Positions 4,056 through 33,322 of a stretch of DNA of 55,793 nucleotides are shown here, piece by piece; within the stretch, counting starts at the first letter, position 1; each line of letters opens with the position of its first letter. Below the pieces are notes generated by a model. The model made no database searches. It had not been told where the DNA came from and saw only the letters and a list, made by a program, of their open reading frames with translations. The DNA lies in the IMG/VR virus record IMGVR_UViG_3300036827_000017, positions 1 through 55,793 of that record; one strand, written 5' to 3'. The DNA comes from a virus. The position numbers were made by a program, and so were the translations under genes.

Positions 4056-4206
4056 TGTGGGACTCCTGAATTGATTTAAAAAGTTTTTCCTCGGCTTCTT
4101 CTTCCTCCTTTTCGATTCTACGAAGCTCAAGAACAAATCTTTCTATATCACGTTGTCGCAGCTTGATTGCTTCTCTTAGAGCCTGCTTTATCGTGTCATT
4201 CATCAT
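4048..4206 (-). CDS. small charged coiled-coil protein (52 aa), not in ORF track
   Basis: own translation MMNDTIKQALREAIKLRQRDIERFVLELRRIEKEEEEAEEKLFKSIQESHNG; its TAA overlaps the start region of the radical SAM gene. Confidence 0.4.
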   Translation of the reverse strand: MMNDTIKQALREAIKLRQRDIERFVLELRRIEKEEEEAEEKLFKSIQESHNG

Positions 4207-4233
4207 GGACAAAATCATTTGTCACCACCAAGT

Positions 4234-5265
4234 TTAGCCAATCCTCTTACACGCTTCTGCCCACAGCCGCATCCGGCGCGCCGTGTTCTTGAAAAACTGT
4301 GCGTCCTGCGATTCGATTAAATCCGCGAGCGACAAATACGCTTCGCCGAACGAACTGCCCGTCAGTTTATGCTCAACCAGTTTCGGAAGCAATTCTTCCA
4401 TGAGCCTGATCCCGAAAATTTCCTTCTCCGCGTCGGCCAGATAGTTATGCGAGTTCCGGCGATGCGTCGCCACGGGAGTTCCGAACCGCGCCGTCAATCC
4501 TAAATGCTTCGCGCACTTCAATGCGAAGTACCCTTGAAAAATATCCCCGTAGCGGTCAATCGGCGCTTCCATGCACACAAAATAATACGCGGCCATCGCG
4601 TCCCGCCGCACCGCCGTATTCTGCGAATTAATCGGGCACCAGGTATCGGGAGCCAGCACCGCGCTGCCCGTACACCGCGCCACCTGTCCGGGCCGCTGTA
4701 GCCACGTCAGAGCATCCACATCTGGAGCGCCCGTCCACATCCCCGCATTGATGACCACTTCCCCATCTTCCGAGTATTGCGTATGAACCTTGAACGATCG
4801 GCGCGCGTAGTACGGAAACCCGCGGGCGAAGATCTCCGGCCCCATGATTTTCAGCAGATTGCAGTTGTTGTACCAGCCATCCTCGGTGCTCACCAGTGGG
4901 TTATGCTTCCCGAGCGCCGCGATATGCGCCCCGATGAAGTCCTCGTTTAGTGGGCAGAAATTGTCATCGTCGATCGACACAATCATCTCGGCGCCTTCGG
5001 CCAGCGCCATCAGGTAGCCGATGTTGCGGCGATTGTCGGAGTTGAGGGGAATTTCTTCGAAGGGGAATCCTAGTTTTTCAAGAAACCTGACCTGCTCTCC
5101 AAGGTCGGGAATAGCGACGCATTTAGGCACCTTAAAGTTCGGCGTCTTCACGTCCGATATTAAAATAATACTGACTTCGCGTCCGTACTTGGCAAGATTG
5201 GCGAGGTACCCCTTCAGCAGTTCCGTGCAGTCGTTGATCGAGGTCAAAACAATCGCGGCCTTCAC
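4234..5265 (-). CDS. GT75 / reversibly-glycosylated-polypeptide-like protein (glycosyltransferase or UDP-arabinopyranose-mutase-like)
   Basis: GTG start; SIDDDNF, RGFPYYARR, GMWTGAPDVDALTW, PINSQNTAVRR blocks recalled from the RGP family. Confidence 0.55.
   Translation of the reverse strand: MKAAIVLTSINDCTELLKGYLANLAKYGREVSIILISDVKTPNFKVPKCVAIPDLGEQVRFLEKLGFPFEEIPLNSDNRRNIGYLMALAEGAEMIVSIDDDNFCPLNEDFIGAHIAALGKHNPLVSTEDGWYNNCNLLKIMGPEIFARGFPYYARRSFKVHTQYSEDGEVVINAGMWTGAPDVDALTWLQRPGQVARCTGSAVLAPDTWCPINSQNTAVRRDAMAAYYFVCMEAPIDRYGDIFQGYFALKCAKHLGLTARFGTPVATHRRNSHNYLADAEKEIFGIRLMEELLPKLVEHKLTGSSFGEAYLSLADLIESQDAQFFKNTARRMRLWAEACKRIG
5158..5170 (+). repeat. 13-bp dyad box
   Basis: exact; encodes IILI, aa 33-36 of 4234..5265. 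Confidence 0.9.
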
Positions 5266-10098: not shown

Positions 10099-10530
10099 TT
10101 ATGCGTTCACCACGCTTTCAAATTTTAAAAGTCTGCGAATCTTACCCAAATCGTCGGTTACAAATCCAGCCATCTTCACCATCAAATCTGGCTCACGCAT
10201 CCCTGCCACATAGACTGCAACGATTTTCCCAGCACCGGCGGCCCAGCCCATCTCCATGCTGGCCGAAGGACCGCAGGGCATGACCATTACGCACGCATCA
10301 CACCACCGCAGCGCATCCATGTCGCGCTTAAATCCGCGTTCGGCGCATTGATGTTTCAAGCCTTGGAGATAGCCCGTAGGCGTCCATGTCTCCCATTTAG
10401 GGTCCACTTCCGACCAATGAAAGCCTTCGGAGTCTTTGAAGTCATAGACCTCGTGACCATCCTGCCGCAACGCGGCCACAACTTCAGGCTGAACGCTATT
10501 TCTCCATGAACTTGCAACGTATACCTTCAT
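10099..10530 (-). CDS. nucleoside 2-deoxyribosyltransferase-like protein
   Basis: start at ATG 10530 (ATGA overlap); MKVYVASSWRN ... SMEMGWAAGAGKIVAVY pattern; assignment tentative. Confidence 0.45.
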   Translation of the reverse strand: MKVYVASSWRNSVQPEVVAALRQDGHEVYDFKDSEGFHWSEVDPKWETWTPTGYLQGLKHQCAERGFKRDMDALRWCDACVMVMPCGPSASMEMGWAAGAGKIVAVYVAGMREPDLMVKMAGFVTDDLGKIRRLLKFESVVNA

Positions 10531-10862
10531 GCGTGCTTCGCCCCCTTTGATCCCCGGTGACACCCGTTTTGCCACGGTCCGCACAACGTCTGTAGATTCT
10601 CGATGTTATCGTGCCGCTTCTGCCCGTAGTTTTTGGCAACGTGGTGCATTTCCATACGCTCGAAGCTCACGTATTCGTGACATCCAAGGCATCGTCGACC
10701 GTCCCGCTCCCATACCTCCCACCGCCGATTACGGATGTCCACCCCCTTCAGGTACTCTCGCCCGTCCTGGTGCACCTGTGATCGACGGTCCAGGTACGTG
10801 CCGTCGCTGCGGCGCTGCGCGGTCAGCTCGCGGTCAACCCTGATGGATTCATGTTTTAGCAT
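10527..10862 (-). CDS. HNH endonuclease
   Basis: CLGCHEY...MEMHHV...HDNIENLQTLCGPWQNGCH; start ATG 10862 or 10910. Confidence 0.7.
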   Translation of the reverse strand: MLKHESIRVDRELTAQRRSDGTYLDRRSQVHQDGREYLKGVDIRNRRWEVWERDGRRCLGCHEYVSFERMEMHHVAKNYGQKRHDNIENLQTLCGPWQNGCHRGSKGAKHA

Positions 10863-15956: not shown

Positions 15957-16766
15957 TCACCGATCGCACAAATTGTAGATACTCATGCAAGTCTTGCGTT
16001 CTTCCCAGGGAAGCTCGGCCATTGTTTTCATGTCCAAATAAGTAATCACGTCGGCGTTCATCGGAAACTTCTTGCCACTCTTGGGATCGAATCCGGTTTG
16101 AAATCGCTTCGGAATATAGTTCGGTGGGAAGAATGACCTGCCGCCGCAAGCCGCGCTCAATAGTTCCATTCTCTCGATAAAGACTGGCCGCATGATCGGA
16201 TTGGATAGGAAGGCTTTCGCCTCTCTGTGATTGATGAGCACGCAAGGGAAGCATCCTACTCGGCCAGCGTCCAGCAGATACAGAGGATTTGGCGGAATTG
16301 AGTATTTCGCGGCGAGAGCGAACACTTGCTCGACGGTCCAGAATGCGAGTGGATGATTCACCCAGCAGTCATACCAGTCCGACCATTCCCGCTCCGGGAT
16401 CTGGCTACGCGATTCGCTTTCATCTCGACGCTTTCCGTCGTACATTTCATATTCGTCATTGATCGTTTTTAGAAACTCGATCATGGGCTTGACTTTCAAT
16501 TCTTCGGTGCAAAAGCGTGCCTTCGGCGAAGGCACGCGATGCTTGATCTTGACCAATTTCTCCATGCCCATAGACGGCAGTACGTGGAACTCAAGGCCGA
16601 GCAAGAGTGATTTCTTCATATCTTCCAAGTAAGCAAACATCAAATCGTGATCCCACTTTGCGTCATTGAAAACGACGATAATATCGGCGGCGGCGAATCG
16701 TTCTTTGGCCCACAGGACAAGTGCCGTTGAATCCTTGCCGGTCGAATATCCGATAACTCGTTTCAC
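15957..16766 (-). CDS. PAPS-reductase-family (PP-loop ATP pyrophosphatase) protein
   Basis: GTG start; VIGYSTGKDSTALVLWA = SGGKDS-type PP-loop. Confidence 0.8.
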   Translation of the reverse strand: MKRVIGYSTGKDSTALVLWAKERFAAADIIVVFNDAKWDHDLMFAYLEDMKKSLLLGLEFHVLPSMGMEKLVKIKHRVPSPKARFCTEELKVKPMIEFLKTINDEYEMYDGKRRDESESRSQIPEREWSDWYDCWVNHPLAFWTVEQVFALAAKYSIPPNPLYLLDAGRVGCFPCVLINHREAKAFLSNPIMRPVFIERMELLSAACGGRSFFPPNYIPKRFQTGFDPKSGKKFPMNADVITYLDMKTMAELPWEERKTCMSIYNLCDR

Positions 16767-19506: not shown

Positions 19507-19538
19507 ACAGGCATGTCGTGCTACACTCCCTTTCGGCA

Positions 19539-19691
19539 ATGCGTGAGGATTTACGACGCTCGCCTCCGACCTATGCTGACATTCGGCGAATCCTTCAAAT
19601 GCGCTGCGAGCGGGTTCCCTGGCGAACGATTGCCAAACGACTCGGGTTTTCCGTGCGTACCATTCAGAAAGCGATAAGAGAGATTCAATGA
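19539..19691 (+). CDS. small HTH DNA-binding protein (50 aa), not in ORF track
   Basis: own translation MREDLRRSPPTYADIRRILQMRCERVPWRTIAKRLGFSVRTIQKAIREIQ; TGA overlaps next ATG (ATGA); GTG 19518 alternative start. Confidence 0.6.
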   Translation: MREDLRRSPPTYADIRRILQMRCERVPWRTIAKRLGFSVRTIQKAIREIQ

Positions 19692-20344
19692 AGAAATTGG
19701 CGCTTATCTTTCCGCTCGCATTGCTCACTGGCTGCGCGGCGTCCATCTATCAGCCCAAGCCACCTCTCCCGCCGACCACATTCACGAATCATTATCTGGC
19801 TGATCTTGCCTCTCCCACACTGCTTTCCAGTTACGACAGCCTGCCCGATGGATCGCTTAAAGTTGCACGGCGCAATGCCATCCTCTACGAATACATCTGG
19901 CTCGTGGACGCTAATTACTATACATACGAAGTGGGATTCTTTTCCGGTCAGGCGTATGTGAGCACGGCTGCGGACCTCGCGGTGATGGGCACAGATGCAG
20001 CCGCAGCAGTTACCGGGACGGCCATGACGAAAGCTATCCTTGCGGCGGTTGCTGGCGGGGTGGTGGGAGCGCGTAGTACATATCAAAAGAACTTCTTCGA
20101 TCAGATTACACGGGAAAATATCGTCGCGCAGATGCGAGCATCCCGAGCAAGCACGCTCGTTGAAATCATGCAGGGAATGAATATGAATGGGGTCGGTTAT
20201 ACGCTCGAACAAGGGTTGCTAGATGTAGCAGCCTATTATCGGGATGGAACGGTAATTAGCGCGGTCGAAGCCATCAGCAACTCGACCAGCCAGCAGGCCA
20301 ATACTGCCAGACAAGCCATGAAAACTTTGAGGGGAATACGCTGA
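19688..20344 (+). CDS. lipoprotein
   Basis: MKKLALIFPLALLTGC lipobox. Confidence 0.75.
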   Translation: MKKLALIFPLALLTGCAASIYQPKPPLPPTTFTNHYLADLASPTLLSSYDSLPDGSLKVARRNAILYEYIWLVDANYYTYEVGFFSGQAYVSTAADLAVMGTDAAAAVTGTAMTKAILAAVAGGVVGARSTYQKNFFDQITRENIVAQMRASRASTLVEIMQGMNMNGVGYTLEQGLLDVAAYYRDGTVISAVEAISNSTSQQANTARQAMKTLRGIR

Positions 20345-20347
20345 CTA

Positions 20348-21829
20348 ATGAAACGAATCGCCTTCGTAACCACGTGCAAGAATCGCGCCCAACATCTCAA
20401 GTCAACCCTTCCCCGCAATCTCGCCGACAACGCCTCCTACGCGAATGCCGTATTCATCGTCCTCGACTATTCCAGCCCTGATGATCTGCTCCCTTATCTG
20501 TTTATGAATCACCAGCAGGACATCGAATCCGGTCGTCTAGTCGTCTACTCGTTCCTTGATCCGGTGCCTGGACCGTTTCGTATGGCCCACGCTAAGAATT
20601 TAGCGGCCAGGTGCGGCATCCTCGAAGGCGCGGACATTCTCGTTACCCTCGACGCGGACAATTACACTGGCCCAGGATTCGCTCAATTTATTAGTGACCA
20701 CTTCACCGAACCGGGGATATTCCTATGTCCTGATTTTCCGCTCATCCACAGCCTTCCTCACGGCCCTTCCCGTCCGATGCGTGGCTATGCCGGTCGTCTG
20801 GCAATCCGGGCACAAGACTTCATTAAGGCCGGAGGGTACGACGAGATTTTCGATGTGTGGGGCAGCGAAGATATGGACATGATCTTTCGATTGCAGCGAA
20901 TGGGATACTCCATGCGGCATATCGACAACGGGTACCTGAATACGATCCCTCATCCCGCCGAGGTTCGCTTCAAGGAGTATCCCGAGGCGCAGAAGTATGA
21001 GACGAAACAGCACGTCCTGACCGTAGCCGCTCGGACACAAACCGTTGTGAATTACGGGCGGTTCGGCCTCGGCGCGGTGCGTCGCCATCCCGACTCGCGC
21101 ACCATCACACTCGCGCCCCTGCCGACCCGCATCTTCGGAATCGGAATGCAAAAGACGGCGACCAGCTCACTCCACAAAGCATTCCAGGCTCTTGGCTTCG
21201 ATAGCTTTCATTGGGGTGCCGGAGAAGCTCCCCTGATCTGGTGGGAGTCGCAGCAAGGCAGATCAAAAACTCTTGAACGCTGGTACGCGCTATCCGATAA
21301 CCCGATTCCCTTGCTCTATCGGCAATTAGACAGTTTGTATCCCGGTTCGAAGTTTATCCTCACGGTGCGCGACGAACGGGATTGGATCAAAAGCGTGGAG
21401 AGGCTATGGGACTACCGCTACAATCCGACCAGGTGGGTGTGGGATAAATATCCCTTCACTAATCACATTCACGCTGTCCTGTACGGCCAGAAGGATTTCA
21501 ACGCCGAGATCTTCCTTGCGCGGTATCGGCGTCACAACGCGGAAGTGAAGCGGTATTTCAAGTATCGTCCCGATGACTTGCTGATTCTCGACATCCCCGC
21601 CGGCGATGGATGGAATAAGCTATGTAAATTTCTCGGTAAACCTGTCCCCGATGTTCCCTTTCCGTGGAATAATAATACTCAGCAAAACAAGTTCATCGCC
21701 GCTGCTGCTGAAATCTATACCGAGCCTGCCATGAGAATATCCCGAAGGCACGAACGCCAGCATCACCACCATATGTCTTGGCTCCAGAAATTGTTCTGCC
21801 GGATTTGCCGTTGGTGGCATCGTGAGTAA
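20348..21829 (+). CDS. fusion: N-terminal GT-A glycosyltransferase (beta4GalT/GT7C-like) + C-terminal sulfotransferase
   Basis: VLDYSSPDD, TLDADNY, WGSEDMDMIFR (WGxEDxD motif); then IFGIGMQKTATSSLHKAFQALGF, a PAPS-binding-loop-like start of a sulfotransferase domain. Confidence 0.7.
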   Translation: MKRIAFVTTCKNRAQHLKSTLPRNLADNASYANAVFIVLDYSSPDDLLPYLFMNHQQDIESGRLVVYSFLDPVPGPFRMAHAKNLAARCGILEGADILVTLDADNYTGPGFAQFISDHFTEPGIFLCPDFPLIHSLPHGPSRPMRGYAGRLAIRAQDFIKAGGYDEIFDVWGSEDMDMIFRLQRMGYSMRHIDNGYLNTIPHPAEVRFKEYPEAQKYETKQHVLTVAARTQTVVNYGRFGLGAVRRHPDSRTITLAPLPTRIFGIGMQKTATSSLHKAFQALGFDSFHWGAGEAPLIWWESQQGRSKTLERWYALSDNPIPLLYRQLDSLYPGSKFILTVRDERDWIKSVERLWDYRYNPTRWVWDKYPFTNHIHAVLYGQKDFNAEIFLARYRRHNAEVKRYFKYRPDDLLILDIPAGDGWNKLCKFLGKPVPDVPFPWNNNTQQNKFIAAAAEIYTEPAMRISRRHERQHHHHMSWLQKLFCRICRWWHRE

Positions 21830-22346
21830 AGAGGGCTTGGTCGTCTGGCTGACTGGGCTTAGCGGCTCCGGCAAAACCACAATTTGTCAGGCAGTAGCCA
21901 AAGAACTTATCAGGCGCAAACTGCCAGTCGAGGTTCTCGATGGCGACGATGTGCGCAAGAATCTCACCAGCGACTTGGGCTTCACTAAAACCGACCGTGA
22001 CGACAACGTTCATAGAATTGGCTACGTCGCACATCTACTCGCTCGCAATGGCATCATCGTGATGGTCGCCGTCATCTCTCCCTATTACGACACCAGGCAG
22101 GAAGTCTACAAAACACTTGGTAAAGTCATTGAAGTGCATGTACACGCACCGCTTTCTGTCTGCGAGGCTCGTGATCCTAAAGGACTCTATGCGAAGGTTC
22201 GTGCCGGCGAGCTGTGGAACTTCACCGGAATCGACGACCCCTACGAACCACCGCTTACGCCGGAGATTGAATGCAACACTGCCGCGGAAACAATCGACGA
22301 AAGCCGTGATAAAGTCATTAAAGCTGTGCTGAAGAGTATCCGATGA
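21822..22346 (+). CDS. cysC: adenylylsulfate (APS) kinase
   Basis: VVWLTGLSGSGKTT ... LDGDDVRKNL...LGFTKTDRDDNVHRIGYVAHLLARNG. Confidence 0.9.
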   Translation: MSKEGLVVWLTGLSGSGKTTICQAVAKELIRRKLPVEVLDGDDVRKNLTSDLGFTKTDRDDNVHRIGYVAHLLARNGIIVMVAVISPYYDTRQEVYKTLGKVIEVHVHAPLSVCEARDPKGLYAKVRAGELWNFTGIDDPYEPPLTPEIECNTAAETIDESRDKVIKAVLKSIR

Positions 22347-22891
22347 AAGAATTTGCAACCAAGGCCGCACACTGGGATCATTGCATTCCCCTGCTGACTG
22401 TAGAGGGATTGGTGATGGAGTTTGGAGTATTCAACGGAACCTCCGTCAATCACATTGCCGACCGAGTTCGCCCGCACAAAGTCTACGGATTCGATAGTTT
22501 CAAGGGGTTGCCGCGAGGATGGTACAAGGTACGACAGGGATATTTTGCCCTGCCGGCGCCTCCACCTGTACGGGAGAATGTAGAACTGGTTATCGGACTA
22601 TTCGAGGACACCTTACCAGGGTTCCTGTCCGAGCACCCCGAACCAGCCTCATTCATTCATGTGGACTGCGACTTGTACTCTTCCACGAAAACAGTTCTGG
22701 ATCACTTAGGTCCACGAATCGTCCCTGGCACGATTATCATCTTCGATGAATTCAACGACTACGGGGGATGGGAATTACATGAGTTCAAGGCGTTTAGTGA
22801 GTTCATGGACGCATCTACTTTGAAATATGAATACATCGCTCAACTTGCTTCGAGCGATAATCCAAGACCCGTAAGTGTGAGGATTGTATGA
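22343..22891 (+). CDS. TylF/MycF-like class I SAM-dependent O-methyltransferase
   Basis: MEFGVFNGTS, GFDSFKGLP, HVDCDLYSSTKTVLDHL, IIIFDEFNDYGGW. Confidence 0.7.
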   Translation: MKEFATKAAHWDHCIPLLTVEGLVMEFGVFNGTSVNHIADRVRPHKVYGFDSFKGLPRGWYKVRQGYFALPAPPPVRENVELVIGLFEDTLPGFLSEHPEPASFIHVDCDLYSSTKTVLDHLGPRIVPGTIIIFDEFNDYGGWELHEFKAFSEFMDASTLKYEYIAQLASSDNPRPVSVRIV

Positions 22892-23319
22892 GCGCCCTTC
22901 CACTAAGATTTGAAAACAAGATCAACAAACTAGATTCTGGCTGTTGGGAATGGACAGGTAGGAAGGATAGTGGTGGGTATTGTCAGAGTTCTACAATTGG
23001 TAAAGACAAGCGGCGGTGCATGGCCCATAGAGCGGTTTATGAAATCCTTGTTGGCCCCATTCCGAAAGGTCTGGAGCTTGACCATCTCTGTAGGAATCGG
23101 GCCTGTGTCAATCCCGAACACTTAGAGCCAGTGACGACACGCGAAAATGTTTTAAGAAGCCAAAATTTAGCATCCATAAATGCCAAGAAAACTCACTGTC
23201 CGCAGGGACATCCGTATAATCAAGAAAATACATATATTTACCCAGACGGAAAACGAAGGTGCAAGATTTGTCGGATGGCAGCATCTAGAAAATATCGTGC
23301 CATGAAAGGTAAACAATGA
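22888..23319 (+). CDS. HNH endonuclease
   Basis: LDHLCRNRACVNPEHLEPVTTRENV. Confidence 0.85.
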   Translation: MSALPLRFENKINKLDSGCWEWTGRKDSGGYCQSSTIGKDKRRCMAHRAVYEILVGPIPKGLELDHLCRNRACVNPEHLEPVTTRENVLRSQNLASINAKKTHCPQGHPYNQENTYIYPDGKRRCKICRMAASRKYRAMKGKQ

Positions 23320-24161
23320 GAACGCACAGACGCCGGAGACATCACCACCACAGCAGACACAAACGCCACCATCGGGACATCCCGATCGGCAAGCTCGGCA
23401 AGCGCCCAGCCATCATCGACCCTCGCACGCTCAAGCTCGGGAAATATCTCCTTTCAACGCTTCCTCCGGCACCACTCTCGGTGGATTACACGATGGGCAT
23501 CAAAGATTTCTCGATGATGCTCAATGATGCGCTTGGCGATTGCGTGATTGCAGCCGTCGGCCACGCACAGCAGATATTTTCAGCCGCAGCACGCAGCTTC
23601 GCCGATACTCCTCCCGATTCGGTGATTCTCGCTGGCTACGAGAATTGGTGCGGGTATGTGCCCGGAAAGCCTCGCACCGACCAAGGCTGCTTTGAGATCA
23701 ACGTACTCAATGCGTGGCGCAAGTCGAGTTTTTATTCCTATTCTCTGAGCATGTATGCGGACCCGAATCCACGCAACATTGCCGAGATTAAGCAAGCCAT
23801 CCATCTATTCGGCGGGGTTTTTCTTGGAATCCAGCTACCTGTATCGGTTCAGGGATTAAACGTGTGGGATGTGTCGAGCGGGCCGGATGCTGTCCCTGGC
23901 TCCTGGGGCGGCCACGCCGTGTGGGTTCCGAAATACGTCACCAACGCCGATGGCAGCGTGACCTTCACCTGTATCTCCTGGGGCGGGTTAATCGACATCA
24001 CCGAAGCGTTCTGGCTCTACAACGATCCCTCGAACGGCCCATACATCGACGAAGTTCACGCACTCATTTCGCCGGAGTTCATCAACCGCAAGAGCCATAC
24101 GACGCCAACGGGCCTGAACCTCATGCAGATGGAAGCGGATATGCTGCAAGTCACGAAGTAA
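23316..24161 (+). CDS. papain-fold cysteine-peptidase-like protein with His/Arg-rich N-terminus
   Basis: LGDCVIAAVGH (Cys), SWGGHAVWV (His), CISWGG; order is as in C1-type peptidases; tentative. Confidence 0.5.
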   Translation: MRTHRRRRHHHHSRHKRHHRDIPIGKLGKRPAIIDPRTLKLGKYLLSTLPPAPLSVDYTMGIKDFSMMLNDALGDCVIAAVGHAQQIFSAAARSFADTPPDSVILAGYENWCGYVPGKPRTDQGCFEINVLNAWRKSSFYSYSLSMYADPNPRNIAEIKQAIHLFGGVFLGIQLPVSVQGLNVWDVSSGPDAVPGSWGGHAVWVPKYVTNADGSVTFTCISWGGLIDITEAFWLYNDPSNGPYIDEVHALISPEFINRKSHTTPTGLNLMQMEADMLQVTK

Positions 24162-24162
24162 T

Positions 24163-24175
24163 TATTAAAATAATA
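24163..24175 (+). repeat. 13-bp dyad box
   Basis: exact; TATTAAAATAATATG, last A is the A of the lysozyme start; covers all but the first base of the 13-nt spacer. Confidence 0.9.
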
Positions 24176-24594
24176 TGCCCGTCGATTCAATCTCCTCGCA
24201 ACTCCGACGTGACGAGGGGGTGCGGCAATTCCCTTATGTGGACACCGTGGGCAAGACCACGATCGGCGTGGGTCGCAACCTAACCGATGTGGGACTCTCC
24301 GATGCGGAGATCGACTTCCTTCTCTCCAATGACATCCAGAAAGTGCTCAATCAGCTACAGGCACGCCTGCCCTATTTCGAGGCGCTTGATCCGGCGCGGC
24401 AAGGCGTCCTTATCAACATGGCCTTCAATTTAGGCTTCGCTGGCTTGGAAGGTTTCCCTCGTATGCTCTCCGCGTTCGCGCAAGGCGACTGGGAGCGTGC
24501 AGCGTCGGAAATGCTAGAGTCTCGCTGGGCGACTCAGGTGGGAGCGCGCGCCGAGCGGCTCGCGGAGCAAACGCGCACAGGACAGTGGGTCTAG
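24175..24594 (+). CDS. GH24 (T4-type) lysozyme / endolysin
   Basis: LRRDEGVRQFPYVDTVGKTTIGVGRNL (E...D...T catalytic pattern). Confidence 0.9.
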   Translation: MPVDSISSQLRRDEGVRQFPYVDTVGKTTIGVGRNLTDVGLSDAEIDFLLSNDIQKVLNQLQARLPYFEALDPARQGVLINMAFNLGFAGLEGFPRMLSAFAQGDWERAASEMLESRWATQVGARAERLAEQTRTGQWV

Positions 24595-25744: not shown

Positions 25745-25961
25745 ACCGTTCTCCCATAAGAGCTTGATTTAACTGTTCGCGCAGCCCCTTGGCCGTATCG
25801 ACTGGCAATGTGTATTTCACGATCGGCGCTCCCCTTGCGTACAGCGTTAAAATAATCTTCCCTTCGATTCGCTCGATGGCAACCCCGTCCGCGACTTCGA
25901 TCTGATCCCGTGGCACGTCACTAAGGATGTATCCCGTTATTCGTATTGGAAAGTGTACCAC
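25734..25961 (-). CDS. hypothetical protein (75 aa)
   Basis: ORF in operon context. Confidence 0.5.
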   Translation of the reverse strand: MVHFPIRITGYILSDVPRDQIEVADGVAIERIEGKIILTLYARGAPIVKYTLPVDTAKGLREQLNQALMGERYGR

Positions 25962-26949
25962 TGGTTACAATACTTAGAATCCCCGTCCCCGTGGTCATGT
26001 TGGTCGTCGTGGTATCGCATCTCCAGGTCACTCCGTCCGTGAGCCACGCGCACGCCGTTGACATTATCGGCGGTGGTGGCGTTCCCGATTGCACCAATTG
26101 AATTGCATCGTACTTGGCATTATTCGCGGTGCCCTTTACGAACGAAATAATGATGGTGCCTGTCGAGGTGACCGTAATCGTCTTGTCGATGGCCTTGTAT
26201 TGCCCGCCTGCTGCCGCGAAAATGTCGAAATTCGATAAAACATGGACCCCGTTGATCGTCACATTGAAAACTCGCTGGCCCGCCGCCGTAAAGTAGATCT
26301 CCGCAAACTTGATGGTCAGCGAATAAGTTCCTGCGGGCGCCGGGATCGTACAGGTTGTTACGCCGGGATTGTCGTAGCGTTCGCTCTGATACAAAGCTGC
26401 ATCGGCCAGAGAAGGCAACGCGCCGGTAATCGCATGGGTTGTGGTAAAGGTACTTCCCCCAGCGCAATACGTCGTATCCGCCGACCAAGTATTTCCTTGC
26501 GAATCCGTATAGGCCGTACCGGGCTTTATCCGCACGGGCGTAAAACTCGTGTCTGCCGGAATCACGGCCTGAACCTCGTTGCTGAATACCGACGTGATGC
26601 TGGCCGAGTTCATCGTGGTCACGACGTAGTAGTACGTCTGTCCAGCAACCACGCTGGTATCGACGAAACTCGTTCCCGGAATGAGAGCAGGCGACAATGC
26701 TATTTCCGTTCCGGGAGTTTGGCTTCGCAGTACGTTGTAGCCAGAACAGGTCTGTGCAATCTTTCCTGTCAAGTCTGTACCACACGAAGTCGCAGCCGTC
26801 CATGTAAGCGTGGCTGAGTGGGTCGTCGCCGTATTCGTCACCGTAGGCGATGCGAGCGTCGGTACCGTCATCGTCGGGTCAGCATTACGCTGACCGTGCG
26901 CCGGCAGAGCGAATAGGAATGACGCCAGTAGGAACAGTTTCATCCTCAT
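25921..26949 (-). CDS. exported Fn3-like + malectin-domain carbohydrate-binding protein
   Basis: start moved to MRMKLFLLASFLFALPAHG/Q signal peptide; YTDSQGNTWSAD...LYQSERY...YSLTIKFAEIYFTAAGQRVFNVTINGVHVLSNFDIFAAAGG is malectin-like. Confidence 0.8.
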   Translation of the reverse strand: MRMKLFLLASFLFALPAHGQRNADPTMTVPTLASPTVTNTATTHSATLTWTAATSCGTDLTGKIAQTCSGYNVLRSQTPGTEIALSPALIPGTSFVDTSVVAGQTYYYVVTTMNSASITSVFSNEVQAVIPADTSFTPVRIKPGTAYTDSQGNTWSADTTYCAGGSTFTTTHAITGALPSLADAALYQSERYDNPGVTTCTIPAPAGTYSLTIKFAEIYFTAAGQRVFNVTINGVHVLSNFDIFAAAGGQYKAIDKTITVTSTGTIIISFVKGTANNAKYDAIQLVQSGTPPPPIMSTACAWLTDGVTWRCDTTTTNMTTGTGILSIVTSGTLSNTNNGIHP

Positions 26950-27244
26950 TGATAAGCCTCTGAAGCAATTCATAGCGAGTCGAGCAATCTGCTTTGCGAA
27001 GAATTTCTGAGACGTGAAATTTAACTGTGCGGGTCGCACATCCCAACGAACTTGAGATTTCCTTGTTATGCAAGCCGCGACGGATGCCATCTAACACTTG
27101 GCGCTGGCGGTAGGTCAACCGCATCCCTCTAAGCAAATTCATCTCGGTAAGGACAAGTTTCTGCACGCGGCTTAGTTCTTGCTTCGCCATTTCAAATTGC
27201 CGAACGGCGTGGTCGAGTTGCGCTCCTAGAGAGAGTTCTTTCAT
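26885..27244 (-). CDS. LuxR/GerE-type HTH regulator
   Basis: LTYRQRQVLDGIRRGLHNKEISSSLGCATRTVKFHVSEILRK. Confidence 0.8.
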   Translation of the reverse strand: MKELSLGAQLDHAVRQFEMAKQELSRVQKLVLTEMNLLRGMRLTYRQRQVLDGIRRGLHNKEISSSLGCATRTVKFHVSEILRKADCSTRYELLQRLINEDETVPTGVIPIRSAGARSA

Positions 27245-27253
27245 GTTTAGTTC

Positions 27254-28315
27254 TCAATCCGCAAAACAAATCACCTTTAACACGTCATTTGCTACAAATG
27301 AGGTCGGCACTGTCACGTCGCTGAAATTGGTGATCGTTACAGACGTTGTGCTCTCTCCTCCTGTTTGCCTCTGTAGAGATACTGACGTTGTTTGCGTCGT
27401 AATGTCACTTGCGGAACAATTCCAACCTGTCACGGCTCCTGGCATAGTTACAGTGCAAGCTGATCCTGGTGCCGTGCCAACGGCAATCTTAAATGCTGCT
27501 GTCCCGTTCTGTGCCGAGATCGTTGCCGCGCTGCCACCACACCCCGCACCCGCAATTGTTGGGGCAGTAGTGGATATAATGGGCGCCCCGGTCACTGAGT
27601 TCATGATTGCGGTAAGAAACTGAAAATTTAGATTGGACCTTATAAACGTCGGCGATGCTATCAGTCCGTTGGAGCTTCCAGCATTTAGCAGTAGGTTGGT
27701 GCCATCCGTATTTATGCCCACGCTTGGCGCAGACGTGAACGCATAGGTCGGCAACGCGGTAGTCCCGTTCGGTCCTAAAACTGCCTCAGTGGTCGTCACG
27801 TTCGTTGCGTTATCGCTCAGTGCCGAATCTACAAACGTGGTGGCGTTTGACCGTTTAGGCAGTACGTTGTTGGTCGCATTAATAGTGGTGCCCGCGCCTC
27901 CACCGCCCCCACCCGCTCGGGCAGAAGCGATGGATTGGACAATGGACACGGTAGTTGACCCGCCGGCCTGTGTGGACATGCGCATGTACACGTTGGTATA
28001 GCCAGCGGTATTCGCCTGCCATGTCCCCGTTCCAGTCGTCGAAGTTACGGCAGTCGTGCTATTGCTCGGCGTGACGTTCAATGCGACCCGCGTTGTGCCA
28101 CCATCGCCAGAGGCTTCGAATTGGATCGTGTTTCCCGAGGCGTTGGTTGTGATCGTGAATGTTGCCCCGCCTTGGCCGGGATCGACAGAAACGCCGAGGC
28201 AGGATGTGGACGTGCAACTGGCGCTTGCCGCCGTCAGGGGTATTTTCTGCTGCGCCGGAGACGCACGCGCTAGTGCCAGCATTATTAAAATAATAATGAG
28301 CAACCTTTTTTGCAT
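27254..28315 (-). CDS. exported fibre-like protein, paralogue A (353 aa)
   Basis: MQKRLLIIILIMLALARASPA/QQ signal peptide; N-domain aligns with that of 28324..31008; GGGGGGAG linker. Confidence 0.75.
   Translation of the reverse strand: MQKRLLIIILIMLALARASPAQQKIPLTAASASCTSTSCLGVSVDPGQGGATFTITTNASGNTIQFEASGDGGTTRVALNVTPSNSTTAVTSTTGTGTWQANTAGYTNVYMRMSTQAGGSTTVSIVQSIASARAGGGGGGAGTTINATNNVLPKRSNATTFVDSALSDNATNVTTTEAVLGPNGTTALPTYAFTSAPSVGINTDGTNLLLNAGSSNGLIASPTFIRSNLNFQFLTAIMNSVTGAPIISTTAPTIAGAGCGGSAATISAQNGTAAFKIAVGTAPGSACTVTMPGAVTGWNCSASDITTQTTSVSLQRQTGGESTTSVTITNFSDVTVPTSFVANDVLKVICFAD
28283..28295 (+). repeat. 13-bp dyad box
   Basis: exact; inside signal peptide LLIIILIM of 27254..28315. Confidence 0.9.
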
Positions 28316-31019: not shown

Positions 31020-31778
31020 TTACCAGATTCCTTGATGATGCCGCGGAACGCCTGACGGTGGTGCTGCCGGCGCGATGGCGACCGATGCTCCTGCCCAGTG
31101 CCCAGCAGCCGATAGCGTGGCTGCAACCGTAAATGTTCCGGTTCCAGCCGGAAGTTGATCCTCGGTGCCCAAGGGGTAGAAGTGGACGTTCTGACAGCCA
31201 GTGCACGGCGCCGCCACATTGTTGCCCGTCACCGAGGTCCATCCGCTGCCTGCGGTAGCGATGTAGGCGTTGATCGAGGGAGCGTTGAAGTCGCCAAACC
31301 CGGAAAATATGGCCGTGCCCGCTGTGGACACCGTAAGGCTTGGGGTAGTTCCAGAGGTTGTCGTGCCTTGGGCTTCCTGGTGATCTGCAATTGGAGAAAT
31401 ACTAGATACGCCAGCGAGATCGTAAACCACAATTGAGGTGTCGGTGCCACTGGTGGCTACCGTAATCGTCGTCGCGGAGGCTGCTACATTCAGATGATAC
31501 GTCCAACGGCAGTTGTTAGGAATGGCGCCACCCGAGTTTACGGAATTAGCTACGACCACGTAATTCCCGGCGTTGACGTTATCAGTGGTGTTTCCACTGA
31601 ACCCAGACCCAGTACAGTAAAAGGCTAGCAAGGTGTCGCCTAACGCATTAGGTGTAAGCGTCACAGACACATTGTTAGTCGTTTGCGTGCTGGTCACGAT
31701 CTGGCTAACGGTGACACCAGCCGCCTGCGCAACAGAGGCACAGCACAACAACATCCCGAGGATTAGTAGGCGTCTCAC
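31020..31778 (-). CDS. exported protein (252 aa)
   Basis: GTG 31778 overlaps upstream stop (GTGA); (M)RRLLILGMLLCCASVAQA/AG signal peptide. Confidence 0.6.
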   Translation of the reverse strand: MRRLLILGMLLCCASVAQAAGVTVSQIVTSTQTTNNVSVTLTPNALGDTLLAFYCTGSGFSGNTTDNVNAGNYVVVANSVNSGGAIPNNCRWTYHLNVAASATTITVATSGTDTSIVVYDLAGVSSISPIADHQEAQGTTTSGTTPSLTVSTAGTAIFSGFGDFNAPSINAYIATAGSGWTSVTGNNVAAPCTGCQNVHFYPLGTEDQLPAGTGTFTVAATLSAAGHWAGASVAIAPAAPPSGVPRHHQGIW

Positions 31779-33322
31779 TGGGATAGAGATACAAACCACG
31801 AAGTCTGCTTGCTGGTGCCGTCCGCTACCCACGTAAATTTGATTACGTCGCCGCTGGCGATCGTCGTTGTCGCGCTCTGCGTGCCTGCCGCACCGCCCGC
31901 CGCCGCCGTACACGTCACCGCGCCGGTCAAAAGCCCCGTCGCCGCGCCATTTGTCGCATTCAGCGTCGATGATCCCGCATTGTCGGTGAAGCACCCGATG
32001 CGCGTGATCGTCCATGTCACTCCCGAATCGTTGTAGCAGTTGGTTTGCAGATACGTGCCCGCAGCTACGGCATTAAGACCATCGCCAAGTCCCGTGTCGC
32101 AACGCAGTTTTGCGTATTGCGATGGACATCCCGCAGTGCTGACCAGATGTTTGTTAGAGTCGGTGCAGACAAGGTTGCTGGCTGTCAGATCGTTCACCGT
32201 AGCCGTAGCAAACGTATTCTTCGTGCTCGATCCGGCCTGGAAGATGCCGTAGTTATTAGCGCCAGAGCCTTCGTCATCAAAATAATCTACATAGTTCGCC
32301 GTACCACCTGCTGTTTGCGCACGATGACGTACTCCATATATAGTGCCGAACGAACCTCCTGCTGCCGCATGATTTGTTGGTACGTTAAAGTTTGTAGCGT
32401 TGGTGATCGTCCCTGCTGCTTCTGTATCTATCTCGTAGTTCATGCCTATCGCGTCTGTTAGTGTTCCCTGCGCGGCAATCGCTACTCCCCCGTTTTGTCC
32501 TACACATGAGGCTACAGTGTTCCCTAAACCGGGACTCGCATAGCAGTCAGTCTCGGCTCCAACGCCGGAAGTTGCGTTGCCGGAAACAGCCCCAGCGATC
32601 TGTACCGCCAGTGCTGTTGCGTCTGTAGCTCCTTTATTTATAAAGGACGCTGCTATTCCGGGATTACCAGCAGTGCCAGGGAAGGGAGTATTACTACCTA
32701 CGAATAAGCCTATTGTCTCAGATAGGATAGGTACAAGGTCAGTTGGTAAACCTGAAAGTGTCGGACCTATAGTTGCTTTTTTATTTACATTGTCCCAAGT
32801 AAATTGAGCGTCACCACCTATAGATGTCGCGCCAGTCCAGAACGTAACTTCCCCGGCAGCGCCACTCCCTGTAATTGACCCCCCGCCACCCACTACACAT
32901 CCCACTGAAAGCGGCACTGTAAACGCATTGATCTGCGAGGTGAGGTCTACTGGCCCTGCGCCCGTGATCCCCGTGAGTGGGCCTGTGCTGAAATTGGAGA
33001 TCCCGCATCTCTCAGTTATACGGAACACATAATGGCAAGTGGTCAGCGCATTGCCGTTTACATCCTTCAATTGCGAGGTGTCGAAAAGCACCTGGCTGAA
33101 GTGACCATTGCTATCTAGTCCGACCGTTGGCGTGTCGCGCGCAATTGGAGTTGGACCGCTATAAGCCTGTTCATTGCCAGGACACACCAGCGAAGCATGA
33201 GCGGTCCCGTTAGCCCACGGGCCGTTCGAGCCGATAACTGTGGCACTCACGGTAAGCTGCTGCGCGTGCAAAAAAGCAGGACACGCCATCAGTATTAAAA
33301 TAATAATGAGACGTTTGACCAT
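31775..33322 (-). CDS. exported fibre-like protein (515 aa)
   Basis: MVKRLIIILILMACPAFLHA/QQ signal peptide; Gly/Thr/Ala-rich repeats. Confidence 0.75.
   Translation of the reverse strand: MVKRLIIILILMACPAFLHAQQLTVSATVIGSNGPWANGTAHASLVCPGNEQAYSGPTPIARDTPTVGLDSNGHFSQVLFDTSQLKDVNGNALTTCHYVFRITERCGISNFSTGPLTGITGAGPVDLTSQINAFTVPLSVGCVVGGGGSITGSGAAGEVTFWTGATSIGGDAQFTWDNVNKKATIGPTLSGLPTDLVPILSETIGLFVGSNTPFPGTAGNPGIAASFINKGATDATALAVQIAGAVSGNATSGVGAETDCYASPGLGNTVASCVGQNGGVAIAAQGTLTDAIGMNYEIDTEAAGTITNATNFNVPTNHAAAGGSFGTIYGVRHRAQTAGGTANYVDYFDDEGSGANNYGIFQAGSSTKNTFATATVNDLTASNLVCTDSNKHLVSTAGCPSQYAKLRCDTGLGDGLNAVAAGTYLQTNCYNDSGVTWTITRIGCFTDNAGSSTLNATNGAATGLLTGAVTCTAAAGGAAGTQSATTTIASGDVIKFTWVADGTSKQTSWFVSLSQ
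33293..33305 (+). repeat. 13-bp dyad box
   Basis: exact; inside signal peptide RLIIILILM of 31775..33322. Confidence 0.9.

Follow-up and report, generated by a model that had tools for sequence, protein, structure and literature searches.

A predicted glycosyltransferase–sulfotransferase fusion with a linked APS kinase in the lysis region of a soil phage

Results

The DNA analyzed here, referred to as the window (IMG/VR record IMGVR_UViG_3300036827_000017, positions 1 to 55,793), is the complete genome of a tailed soil phage, with a 127-bp direct terminal repeat and genes for terminase, portal, major head protein, and Erf. A plus-strand operon (Table 1) carries a 493-aa ORF and, behind it, genes for an APS kinase (CysC), a methyltransferase (MT182), an HNH endonuclease, and a 281-aa protein (P281), and is closed by a lysozyme gene. 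The ORFs lie where a first-pass annotation had placed them, and the 493-aa ORF, the kinase, and the methyltransferase are, as it had claimed, translationally coupled: the first two overlap by 8 nt, and the CysC/MT182, MT182/HNH, and HNH/P281 junctions each overlap by 4 nt, with the lysozyme gene beginning 13 nt past the P281 gene. Upstream, an HTH gene and a lipoprotein gene overlap by 4 nt (read from their coordinates), and 3 nt separate the latter from the start of the 493-aa ORF. A scan for promoters and terminators was uninformative.

Table 1. Coordinates of the features discussed (aa, amino acids of the encoded protein)
Feature	Position	Strand	Basis or remark
PAPS-reductase-like gene	15957–16766	−	Pfam PAPS_reduct, E=7.8e-22
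HTH gene	19518–19691
Lipobox lipoprotein, 218 aa	19688–20344	+	N-terminus MKKLALIFPLALLTGC reads as signal peptide with lipobox; upstream insertion boundary
GT–ST fusion, 493 aa	20348–21829	+	Pfam Glyco_transf_7C and PF17784
GT-A glycosyltransferase domain (predicted), aa 1–250	20348–21097	+	DxD = D102-A-D104; E174-D175-x-D177 inside WGSEDMDMIFR
PAPS-dependent sulfotransferase domain (predicted), aa 261–446	21128–21685	+	PF17784, aligned motifs, fold
C-terminal tail of fusion, aa 447–493	21686–21829	+	Disordered linker, then basic His-rich amphipathic helix
APS kinase CysC (predicted), 174 aa	21822–22346	+	GTG start; Pfam APS_kinase, NCBIfam
MT182, SAM-dependent Methyltransf_24/TylF-like methyltransferase	22343–22891	+	Pfam, phrog_6608
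HNH homing-type endonuclease, 143 aa	22888–23319	+	Pfam HNH_3, E=2.1e-14
P281, papain-family (C1-fold) Cys/His protease-like protein	23316–24161	+	phrog_19005
GH24-type phage lysozyme	24175–24594	+	Pfam Phage_lysozyme, E=2e-10; closes operon
GT227, glycosyltransferase, last gene of set A	54586–55269	−	phrog_14775, E=5e-29; phrog_8858, N-terminal half
Remainder of set A	1–5265	−	Pfam, PHROGs
GT2, 274 aa, set A	55245–55793 joined to 128–403	−	In-frame join across terminal repeat
Two set A proteins without assigned function, 336 aa and 246 aa	within 1–5265	−
HNH gene inside set A region	2260–2700	−	Window-specific
B12-binding radical-SAM enzyme, set A	2697–4136	−
RGP-like GT, set A	4234–5265	−

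The 493-aa ORF had been read as a GT-A domain joined to a sulfotransferase (ST) domain, and HMM searches, motifs, and predicted fold all bear this out. Pfam matches to Glyco_transf_7C (PF02709; aa 142–202, E=3.5e-9, 36.6 bits against a cut-off of 23) and to Sulfotransfer_4 (PF17784; aa 261–446, E=6.6e-38, 131.1 bits against 22.8, profile positions 1–214 of 215) cover the two halves, and each contains one of the motifs quoted at first pass, WGSEDMDMIFR at aa 171–181 and GIGMQKTATSSLHKAF at aa 264–279. Both folds are recognized by Foldseek in an AF2 model (pLDDT 86.5, pTM 0.83). The GT half resembles K4CP chondroitin polymerase, PmHS2 heparosan synthase, ppGalNAc-T2, beta4GalT1, and PcManGT (Foldseek E 1e-10 to 1e-7), while its sequence matches to GT7, GT27, and GT2 members among solved structures are all weak (E 1e-3 to 0.03) and the Pfam profile Glyco_tranf_2_2 scores under its cut-off. 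Residues D102, A103, D104, E174, D175, and D177 do not vary across 39 family members. Profile, DxD motif, and fold together point to a predicted inverting GT-A enzyme with a Glyco_transf_7C-type C-terminal subdomain.

The C-terminal half has both the fold and the PAPS-binding residues of a sulfotransferase. The 5'-phosphosulfate-binding loop reads G264-x-G266-x-x-K269-T-x-T272-S-S274 and the 3'-phosphate motif R341...S349; across 39 sequences, G264, G266, T272, S274, and S349 never vary, and R341 is conserved in at least 90%. A candidate for the catalytic base is D317. Profile matches with these motifs aligned lead to Cpz8 (9kf1), a Schistosoma SULT (4mua, 5tiv), and SgdX2 (8y9p), at E about 1e-17 to 4e-14, and Foldseek (E about 1e-10 to 1e-11) gives target-normalized TM scores of 0.74 to Cpz8 with PAP (9kf2) and 0.77 to SgdX2. 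By profile, loop, and fold, this half is a predicted PAPS-dependent sulfotransferase of the PF17784 (S. mansoni) type. The tail beyond it is poorly ordered in the model (pLDDT below 50 for aa 443–476), with a helix at 461–492; the last 18 residues have a hydrophobic moment of 0.67–0.68, and this helix may be a peripheral membrane anchor. Twelve of 120 relatives (~10%) carry nonhomologous transmembrane anchors, C- or N-terminal, the C-terminal ones at the position of this tail. A true transmembrane segment is absent in 90% of family members, the window copy included, which counts against a membrane location.

The gene after the fusion had been called an APS kinase, and equivalog-level profiles together with the P-loop GLSGSGKTT identify it as bona fide: Pfam APS_kinase matches at E=2.3e-58, and the NCBIfam models PRK00889 and TIGR00455 score 248 bits (cut-off 244) and 223.5 bits (cut-off 138.7), respectively. 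CysC, 60–65% identical to annotated cellular APS kinases, is predicted to make PAPS from host APS. It adjoins the fusion in 6 of 27 loci (among them relatives L003, L004, L005, L006, and L023) and does so in four independent lineages; moreover, two natural proteins (P0045 and P0053) join APS kinase, GT, and ST in one chain. Adjacency in four lineages and these fusions argue that the kinase–transferase link is functional, not accidental, although the kinase is a facultative partner.

For MT182, a methyltransferase assignment stands, whereas the proposed label of TylF/MycF-like sugar O-methyltransferase fits less well: the TylF profile (E=2.6e-12) is matched over positions 173–234 of 264 only. 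Its matches to Pfam Methyltransf_24 (E=5.5e-12), phrog_6608 ("methyltransferase", E=6e-44), and the C-terminal half of phrog_8858 make it better described as a putative Methyltransf_24/phrog_6608 enzyme. Its closest relatives are the methyltransferase (MT) domains of mycobacteriophage gp108-type proteins: tblastn finds matches in 117 phage records, 114 of them mycobacteriophages, at 40–45% identity, Che8 gene 108 included. Against Che8 gp108, whose C-terminal domain is 40–46% identical to MT182, the match has E=4.8e-34. Together with the HNH gene, MT182 makes up a ~1-kb insertion (about 22347–23366) that is present in the window only and absent from L003 and L004, relatives 89–94% identical. 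The HNH gene is co-inserted with MT182 and lies outside the sulfation pathway. The three genes reported at first pass as a cassette are therefore present and coupled, but they are not a conserved unit. In two further lineages the fusion is closely followed by unrelated Methyltransf_24 genes, which makes a link to methylation plausible but facultative.

The downstream neighbor P281 has no Pfam match; its AF2 model (pLDDT 92.8) is closest by Foldseek to xylellain (3ois, E=1.5e-9) and then to procathepsins, with C76 and H200 invariant. It is the commonest neighbor of the fusion (13 of 27 loci) and is fused to GT–ST in P0064. Seen from its own side, P281 is a common lysis-region gene: the fusion is nearby in only 3 of 80 P281 loci, where its usual neighbors are endolysins, lipoproteins, and terminase. 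The two genes upstream of the fusion, HTH and lipoprotein, do not belong to the system; lipoprotein homologues (phmmer E about 6e-26) directly precede P281 in phages L042 and L043, which have no fusion. The lipoprotein is a lysis-region gene outside the sulfation pathway, and the fusion block is cargo placed in the lysis region between the lipoprotein and P281 genes. The PAPS-reductase-family gene noted in the same annotation is present, but nothing ties it to the cassette: it lies on the opposite strand, in the early region beside Erf, and is missing in L003 and L004.

The fusion is a member of a large and tightly conserved family, so far undescribed and carried almost entirely by phages. It has at least 1276 matching relatives, of which the best 120 are all two-domain proteins, 57–89% identical; a library search at E<=1e-30, which includes single-domain GT-only and ST-only relatives, returned 1345 representatives, with both domains at full length in about 20 of the top 150. 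IMG/VR holds 26 fusion loci. Only 2 of 185,579 cellular species genomes contain a full copy, one in a confirmed prophage of an alphaproteobacterial MAG and the other in phage-like surroundings where a Solibacteraceae contig ends. The ST half has no match in 50,697 GenBank phage records or in PHROGs, the GT–ST fusion has none in BFVD, and no described phage system of this kind turned up in the papers searched, in keeping with the first-pass view that the system could not be placed. Reading frames are intact in relatives, and comparisons with close relatives indicate purifying selection (dN/dS 0.11–0.125 for the fusion, 0.04–0.06 for CysC); given this selection and the strong E-values, a chance artifact is not at issue. 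In a survey of 27 loci the fusion recurs on very different phage backbones and in heterogeneous neighborhoods with facultative partners, and it does not co-diversify with the adjacent P281 (Spearman about 0). The conserved unit is the GT–ST fusion alone.

A second, six-gene glycan block ("set A"), missing from the earlier annotation, lies at the genome ends. It is contiguous, conserved in L115 and L116, and immediately precedes the terminase and portal genes in the same orientation. Its last gene product, GT227, also conserved in L115 and L116, matches the N-terminal GT domain of Che8 gp108 (30% identity by tblastn, E=2.3e-19). As GT227 and MT182 match the two halves of one mycobacteriophage protein, a Rosetta-stone link connects them.

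Discussion

We propose that the fusion and its kinase form a mobile, self-contained phage sulfo-glycosylation module acting on a host envelope glycoconjugate precursor; taken whole, this is a tentative statement, to which we give somewhat under an even chance. The enzymology of fusion and kinase within it we consider very probable. With a divalent metal bound at its DxD motif, the N-terminal GT-A domain would transfer a sugar from a nucleotide-sugar donor to a hydroxyl of the acceptor, and the PF17784 domain would move sulfate from PAPS, most simply onto the same or a neighboring sugar. The co-translated kinase would turn host-made APS into PAPS so that the donor is not limiting, an effect that should be greatest in hosts with direct APS reduction and low PAPS production. 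Inserted between the genes for the lipoprotein and the papain-like protease, the module sits in the late/lysis operon and is probably expressed with the lysis genes. Repeated transmembrane tail anchors in relatives and the amphipathic basic helix here make the cytoplasmic face of the inner membrane its most likely site of action. The acceptor would most likely be a conserved, host-supplied, membrane-proximal molecule, namely a lipid-linked envelope glycan precursor (an Und-PP-linked unit, lipid A-core, or glycolipid); fusion hosts come from two diderm phyla, consistent with a conserved host acceptor. Host export machinery would then display the sulfated glycan, altering cell-surface charge or identity, and this change could hide receptors, keep out superinfecting phages, or disturb envelope synthesis. 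The methyltransferase would be an optional tailoring enzyme, gained separately with the HNH endonuclease.

Several observations count against an envelope acceptor. The window revealed no flippase, polymerase, ligase, or initiating phosphoglycosyl transferase; a module expressed late would have little time to remodel the surface unless latent periods are long; and the closest solved structures of the ST half act on small molecules, not glycans.

Cellular sulfation offers a functional parallel. In rhizobia, NodH with NodPQ (Nod factors) and LpsS (LPS) couple PAPS supply genetically to a sulfotransferase acting on a sugar of a membrane-associated glycoconjugate, with sugar methylation as an optional extra decoration. 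Those systems are cellular, use sulfotransferases of other Pfam families, and include ATP sulfurylase, which the phage cassette lacks; we know of no rhizobial sulfotransferase fused to a glycosyltransferase. Among phages, the gtrABC/O-acetylase serotype-conversion modules are cargo that alters host surface glycans by way of host lipid-linked intermediates. They require the flippase GtrA and the periplasmic GT-C enzyme GtrC and sit near attP in temperate phages, and to our knowledge none involves sulfation. Neither GtrA, nor GtrC, nor an integrase occurs among the window ORFs scanned, and with no integrase among them this phage does not fit classical lysogenic conversion.

At the level of the enzymes, Cpz8 (caprazamycin pathway), SgdX2, and the oxamniquine-activating SULT of Schistosoma share the fold and PAPS loops of the fusion ST (TM 0.6–0.77), but the solved PF17784 enzymes are stand-alone, act on small molecules, are 20–28% identical to it, and have neither a GT domain nor a viral context. 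The mycobacteriophage glycosylation loci (Che8 genes 108–110; in cluster O, three GTs and an O-methyltransferase) combine, like the window, a soluble GT-A enzyme with a Methyltransf_24-type O-methyltransferase. The Che8-type system lacks the sulfotransferase and APS kinase found here; the GT and MT domains of its gp108 have homologues in the window but gp109 and gp110 have none, its hosts are actinobacteria in place of diderm soil bacteria, and the GT–ST fusion has no counterpart in any of the 50,697 GenBank phage records. Viral cysC/cysH auxiliary metabolic genes (AMGs) (PMC10914622) likewise include a phage APS kinase of cellular origin; unlike those, the kinase here is coupled or fused to a sulfotransferase, so PAPS would donate sulfate rather than be reduced to sulfite. 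Virus-encoded multi-enzyme glycan synthesis is known from the Megavirinae, giant viruses whose glycan machineries include putative sulfotransferases (PMC11625862) and multi-domain GT–MT enzymes. A Hokovirus sulfotransferase has the ST fold in common with the fusion (TM 0.68), but the giant-virus enzymes are putative, belong to eukaryotic viruses, and include no GT–ST fusion in BFVD.

The main rival to a host-envelope acceptor is a glycan on the virion or another phage protein, in which the fusion would add a sulfated sugar to O-glycans built by the phage's other GTs on capsid, tail, or fiber and MT182 would methylate them, giving an anionic, methylated coat in analogy to virion glycosylation in mycobacteriophages. 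The Che8-gp108-like GT and MT domains, the set A block upstream of the structural genes, and the ST–TPR–GT41 relative favor such a protein or virion glycan. PMC12363180, citing Freeman et al. 2023, describes Che8 genes 108–110 as the locus where capsid glycosylation requires gp110 (compare PMC11600133 and PMC12619734), and GT227 and MT182 correspond to the two halves of a gp108-like protein; against this, neither gp109 nor the essential gp110 has a homologue in the window or its ORFs by tblastn and phmmer (E<=1). Set A is co-oriented with the terminase and structural genes, but the fusion lies in a different operon on the opposite strand, no set A gene occurs within 10 kb of it in other loci, and L115 carries set A with no fusion detected, which makes the two modules independent. 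Four GTs with no flippase or polymerase fit direct cytoplasmic protein glycosylation. Also in favor of this rival are the GT half's best sequence match among solved structures (a ppGalNAc-T, E=0.0011), an ST relative fused to a TPR–GT41 (OGT-like) module, the recruitment of Methyltransf_24 genes beside the fusion in three lineages, and the cassette's location in the late/lysis operon. On the other side, the fusion moves by itself between phages whose structural modules are unrelated, the major capsid protein lacks a Ser/Thr-rich terminal tail, and the repeated gain of membrane anchors is hard to reconcile with cytoplasmic virion substrates. On balance we judge a virion glycan unlikely, though well worth weighing.

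A metabolic or small-molecule role, with CysC as an AMG boosting assimilatory sulfate reduction and GT–ST modifying a soluble metabolite (signal, toxin, antibiotic, or cofactor), seems to us distinctly improbable. Phage cysC/cysH genes are widely reported and read as sulfate-assimilation AMGs (PMC10914622), the solved PF17784 relatives sulfate small molecules, and the window does contain a PAPS-reductase-family gene. That gene, however, belongs to another module, and CysC is fused or adjacent to a sulfotransferase, which ties PAPS to sulfotransfer and not to reduction; furthermore, the GT half groups with glycan-elongating enzymes, its relatives occur in tandem multi-GT polypeptides, and the family includes membrane anchors. 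DNA hypermodification, in which the GT would glycosylate a modified phage base and the ST sulfate the sugar for protection from restriction, is very improbable. Phages do decorate 5hmC/5hmU with diverse glycans by means of GT-A and GT-B enzymes (bioRxiv 10.1101/2023.12.21.572611), and genes for DNA polymerase, DNA methylase, or UDG are close to the fusion in some loci; but the DNA-modifying GT-A enzymes resemble TarP and JGT, the fusion GT resembles K4CP, PmHS2, ppGalNAc-T, and beta4GalT, no C5-methyltransferase, TET/5mYOX, or thymidylate-synthase-like hydroxymethylase appears among the window ORFs scanned (some small ORFs fall outside the scan), and membrane anchoring and the lysis-region position fit poorly. 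Finally, a nonfunctional passenger, captured recently from a host and playing no part in infection, is suggested by the similarity of CysC to cellular enzymes and by the mobile HNH genes flanking the cassette, but is effectively refuted by intact frames in more than a thousand relatives, dN/dS of about 0.1, invariant catalytic motifs, and the near absence of the family from cellular genomes.

Whether the acceptor belongs to the host envelope, as we tentatively prefer, or to the virion, the presence of this fusion family suggests that phages probably make sulfated sugar structures during infection.

Genome organization and the putative sulfation operon

The window carries an exact 127-bp direct terminal repeat (positions 1-127 recur at 55667-55793) and is a complete, circularly closed tailed-phage genome with a unit length of 55,666 bp, in which a large terminase, portal, major head protein, Erf and GH24 lysozyme are all encoded. 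A tRNA scan of the window found none, leaving no host clue from this source; no integrase was present among the window ORFs scanned, and a promoter and terminator scan of the window returned chance-level results. The 493-aa fusion of a glycosyltransferase (GT) half to a sulfotransferase (ST) half has its home in the sole long plus-strand operon, which is flanked by a minus-strand early block and a minus-strand structural block. The coupling by overlapping start and stop codons described in the first-pass annotation was borne out, with overlaps of 4-8 nt at almost all operon junctions.

Coordinates of the operon genes, the second glycan module (set A) and other features of the window
Feature	Position	Strand	Remark
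Operon	19518-24594	+	genes in the order of the next eight lines
Small HTH gene		+	
Lipobox lipoprotein		+	218 aa
GT-ST fusion	20348-21829	+	493 aa
CysC, APS kinase	21822-22346	+	
MT182, methyltransferase	22343-22891	+	
HNH endonuclease	22888-23319	+	homing-type
P281	23316-24161	+	281 aa; phrog_19005
Lysozyme		+	
GT227, glycosyltransferase	54586-55269	-	set A
GT2	across contig junction	-	set A; 274 aa joined
p336	394-1404	-	set A; 336 aa, no assigned function
p246	1547-2287	-	set A; 246 aa, no assigned function
Second HNH	2260-2700		inside set A; window-specific; homing-type
B12-binding radical-SAM enzyme	2697-4136	-	set A
RGP-like GT	4234-5265	-	set A
Early-region gene	10099-10584	-	weak deoxyribosyltransferase match
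PAPS-reductase-family gene	15957-16766	-	phrog_424
Signal-peptide-like proteins (three)	25921-28315, 31775-33322	-	beside tail-fibre genes
LuxR/GerE regulator	26885-27244		
Homing-type endonuclease gene	46227-46682		

Several homing-type endonuclease genes lie in the genome, which appears to be heavily invaded by such selfish elements: both HNH genes are missing from the closest relatives at exactly the positions given above, and a LAGLIDADG gene sits between the portal and major-head genes. An early-region protein weakly resembles nucleoside 2-deoxyribosyltransferase, with a score under the cut-off (E = 1.2e-5). Exported phage proteins within a structural module are unusual; here, three proteins encoded beside the tail-fibre genes have signal-peptide-like N-termini and contain the most Ser/Thr-rich segments of the genome. 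One carries a Malectin carbohydrate-binding domain (E = 9e-24), the gene positioned like the second in the close relative L003 is annotated as a GDSL-lipase, and a LuxR/GerE regulator overlaps the region.

Domain structure and predicted activity of the fusion

Pfam searches confirmed both domains of the fusion, with Glyco_transf_7C at residues 142-202 (E = 3.5e-9) and Sulfotransfer_4 (PF17784) at residues 261-446 (E = 6.6e-38). In an alignment of 39 family members, D102-A-D104 (the DxD motif) and E174-D175-x-D177 are invariant in the GT half, as are the 5'-phosphosulfate loop residues G264/G266/T272/S274 together with D317 and S349 in the ST half, where R341 is at least 90% conserved. A PDB profile search aligned the PAPS loops to those of Cpz8, SgdX2 and a Schistosoma oxamniquine sulfotransferase (E ~1e-17 to 4e-14). 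Foldseek matches divide the AlphaFold model (pLDDT 86.5, pTM 0.83) cleanly into two parts: the GT half resembles K4CP chondroitin polymerase, PmHS2 heparosan synthase, ppGalNAc-T2 and beta4GalT1, and the ST half matches SgdX2 and Cpz8 with bound PAP (TM 0.74-0.77). The sulfotransferase fold and PAPS-binding residues are thus present, and the reading frames are intact in relatives; against relatives 89-94% identical, the fusion has a dN/dS of 0.11-0.125, and CysC one of 0.04-0.06. The components are members of known enzyme families, and the predicted enzymology, sugar transfer followed by a PAPS-dependent sulfation step for which the phage kinase raises the PAPS supply, is well supported.

The adjoining kinase gene had likewise been called correctly, as its product passes the NCBIfam equivalog cut-offs for APS kinase and shares 60-65% identity with annotated APS kinases from Acidobacteriota and Cyanobacteria. 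Across 27 non-redundant fusion loci whose neighbourhoods we analysed, an APS kinase lies beside the fusion in six, representing four lineages, and the two activities are also joined in natural fusions, as TM anchor-APS kinase-GT-ST (P0045) and as GT-ST-APS kinase (P0053). This adjacency and these fusions are strong evidence that PAPS-dependent sulfotransfer is the activity under selection. The PAPS-reductase-family gene is rejected as a member of the cassette: it lies on the other strand beside Erf and is missing from both close relatives, L003 and L004. Its product carries a C-F-P-C motif at the position where CysH has ECGLH, and its role is probably unrelated to sulfation.

A large and mobile phage family

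A word-indexed search returned 1276 relatives of the fusion, the best 120 of which are all two-domain proteins of ~450-500 aa with 57-89% identity. When 1.84 billion representatives were searched exhaustively, 1345 matched at E<=1e-30; full-length two-domain proteins account for about 20 of the top 150 representatives, and stand-alone GT-only and ST-only relatives are numerous. Surroundings are phage-like in every fusion context examined, on backbones that are very unlike one another (podovirus-like, jumbo-like and Erf/YqaJ lambdoid-like) and have few neighbour gene families in common. This combination of strong conservation and unrelated backbones indicates that the fusion is a mobile, strongly constrained cargo gene.

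Copies in cellular genomes are rare and were detectable by a profile-based scan, which found the full fusion in 2 of 185,579 species-representative genomes, whereas a single-sequence scan of these genomes gave no fusion match. The Solibacteraceae copy lies at a contig end in a phage-like context (Erf, YqaJ, lysozyme), and the alphaproteobacterial copy lies within a prophage on a 3.1-Mb contig. The prophage copy of the alphaproteobacterial MAG (L031, 9998-11230) is only 410 aa long, with an ST domain that stops ~35 residues short, and this resident copy may be undergoing decay. The ST half had no match in 50,697 GenBank phage records, blastn of the cassette against GenBank phages returned nothing, no PHROGs family corresponds to the fusion, and BFVD contains viral GT-only and ST-only proteins but no good two-domain match. 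The fusion family is large, very conserved and essentially limited to phages of soil bacteria.

Distant relatives extend the range of architectures. In P0365, P0371 and P0373, a single polypeptide of ~1150 aa strings together three or four GT2/GT7C domains in tandem, P0404 joins a GT to a radical SAM domain, and P0413 joins a GT to GT8; such multi-domain proteins are indicative of stepwise glycan assembly. A further protein, P0398, combines an OGT-like TPR-GT41 with two Sulfotransfer_4 domains, which hints at protein-linked glycans.

Optional companions and a second glycan module

The methyltransferase MT182 had been described as TylF-like and as part of the cassette. It does contain Methyltransf_24, but the TylF profile was matched only in part, so that label is loose, and its place as a core member is rejected, as MT182 and the HNH gene are missing from L003 and L004. 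There, P281 directly follows CysC, and the two genes occupy an insertion in the window (~22347-23366); it seems that one selfish endonuclease brought in the methyltransferase. Among sequenced phages, 114 of 117 records with MT182 relatives are mycobacteriophages (40-45% identity). MT182 matches the C-terminal domain of Che8 gp108, and the N-terminal GT domain of gp108 matches GT227, another gene of this phage; in Rosetta-stone terms, MT182 is therefore paired with GT227 and not with the GT-ST fusion. In two further lineages (L013-16 and L029), Methyltransf_24 genes without BLAST-level homology to MT182 nevertheless occur directly downstream of the fusion, and methylation looks like a recurrent, optional companion. 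The best single phage-database match of MT182 is ORF14 of an archaeal virus, a Nitrosopumilaceae spindle-shaped virus (GenBank BK067792.1, 12471-12962; 42% identity, E = 5e-36); all remaining matches are to actinobacteriophages.

GT227 belongs to set A, a six-gene glycan module on the minus strand across the genome ends that the first-pass annotation had missed. Its GT2 gene, apparently split at both ends by linearization of the contig, is one intact gene over the junction. The module is contiguous and conserved in two other loci, L115 and L116 (73-92% identity), and lies directly upstream of the terminase and portal genes in the same orientation. The L115 phage has set A with no fusion detected, and in other phages the 10 kb around the fusion contain no set-A gene; set A and the fusion are thus independent. 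Homology of the fusion's GT half to p246 or p336 was also rejected (hhalign probability <1%).

The commonest neighbour of the fusion is P281, adjacent in 13 of the 27 loci and, in P0064, fused to the GT-ST enzyme (E = 7e-21 over the full length). P281 belongs to a widespread phage family that lacks a Pfam entry and has a confidently modelled papain/C1 protease fold (pLDDT 92.8; best match xylellain, E = 1.5e-9) with C76 and H200 invariant in its family. It has 333 IMG/VR matches, and in the best 80 of these loci (L034-L113) the fusion lies nearby in three; the usual neighbours are GH108 and GH24 endolysins, Tat/lipobox lipoproteins and terminase genes. P281 typically sits between endolysin or lipoprotein genes and terminase genes, and it may be a lysis accessory protease. 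Outside the close trio, the divergences of the fusion and the adjacent P281 are uncorrelated (Spearman ~0). An obligate partnership is rejected on this lack of co-diversification and the three of 80 loci; we treat the link as positional, with a functional tie possible though not required. Homologues of the window lipoprotein directly precede P281 in phages without the fusion, indicating that the GT-ST/CysC block (with methyltransferase and HNH genes) is an insertion into a lysis-region gene pair. The lysis region is a classic site for phage cargo genes.

Candidate acceptors

Hydrophobic anchors were found in 12 of the 120 closest relatives (the best 120 of 1276), mostly as C-terminal tail anchors after variable linkers and in two cases at the N-terminus; P0049 carries a DUF2061 membrane domain. 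The anchor tails are non-homologous to one another, which means that they were gained repeatedly. No TM segment is present in the window fusion, but its C-terminus forms a long basic helix with strong amphipathic character over the final 18 residues (muH 0.67-0.68). Both donors, UDP-sugars and PAPS, are cytoplasmic, which would require the catalytic domains to lie at the membrane on its cytoplasmic side. We tentatively favor, at somewhat less than even confidence, a conserved, host-supplied, membrane-proximal glycoconjugate precursor as the acceptor, because the fusion is stand-alone cargo in unrelated phages with hosts of two phyla, because membrane anchoring arose repeatedly, and because the gene occupies a position typical of surface-altering morons.

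The main rival, that the fusion sulfates a glycan of the virion or of another phage protein, is on balance unlikely. Virions of Che8, Corndog and Myrna are reported to be glycosylated, with Che8 gp110 essential for this glycosylation (PMC12363180, citing Freeman et al. 2023; see also PMC11600133 and PMC12619734), and the window phage has both Che8-gp108-like GT and methyltransferase domains and a glycan block upstream of its structural genes. However, homologues of gp109 and gp110 are missing from the window, the fusion is independent of that block, and cytoplasmic virion substrates are hard to square with membrane anchors. A check of the structural proteins for Ser/Thr-rich tails gave no informative signal. 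A role in small-molecule modification or sulfur assimilation is improbable: the solved PF17784 enzymes do act on small-molecule acceptors, and viral cysC is usually read as a sulfate-assimilation gene (PMC10914622), but such a role leaves both the kinase-transferase fusions and the glycan-type GT unexplained.

A more speculative and distinctly improbable possibility, drawn from the GlcNAc-acceptor habit of GT7C enzymes and from gene position, is that the fusion acts within the lysis cassette as an enzymatic saboteur of envelope synthesis. GT7C-type enzymes use GlcNAc as a generic acceptor, and the beta4GalT-like domain would cap the terminal GlcNAc of lipid II or Und-PP-GlcNAc, a universal lipid-linked precursor, after which the ST domain would add sulfate to the cap. 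The resulting dead-end intermediates would stop glycan polymerization and tie up undecaprenyl phosphate, weakening the wall ahead of holin and endolysin action; in effect, the fusion would do by catalysis what the single-protein "amurin" lysis inhibitors do. Such a role would explain why the enzyme is so extremely conserved over unrelated phages and hosts of two phyla, why it was repeatedly anchored in membranes, why its gene recurs next to lysis genes (lipoprotein, papain-like protease, lysozyme) and why the phage brings a PAPS supply of its own. DNA hypermodification is rejected as highly implausible, as acceptor-base enzymes are missing among the window ORFs scanned and the GT subtype is wrong.

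Significance

Animals, algae, rhizobia and mycobacteria are well known to contain sulfated glycoconjugates, and rhizobial NodH/NodPQ and LpsS are sulfation systems. GT-ST/CysC would work like these, and also like phage glycan-modification modules. We found no phage-encoded sulfation pathway in GenBank phages, PHROGs or the searched literature; nor did that literature yield a described phage system in which a glycosyltransferase and a sulfotransferase occur together with a PAPS supply. The function of phage sulfotransferases has been called unclear (PMC10580990, PMC8290583), and those of giant viruses are only putative (PMC11625862). The present results define a large family of bifunctional glycosyl/sulfo-transferases, some fused to the sulfate-donor kinase, which points to sulfated glycoconjugates in phage infection. 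Viromics now routinely counts viral cysC among sulfate-assimilation genes; for at least some of these "auxiliary metabolic genes", an alternative reading is that they serve a viral sulfotransferase as its source of PAPS. Being compact, the two-domain enzyme might also find use in making sulfated sugars. Should a glycan of the host surface or the virion prove to be the product, the family would represent a new phage route to altered surface charge, which would affect receptor masking, soil-matrix adhesion or immune-like recognition.
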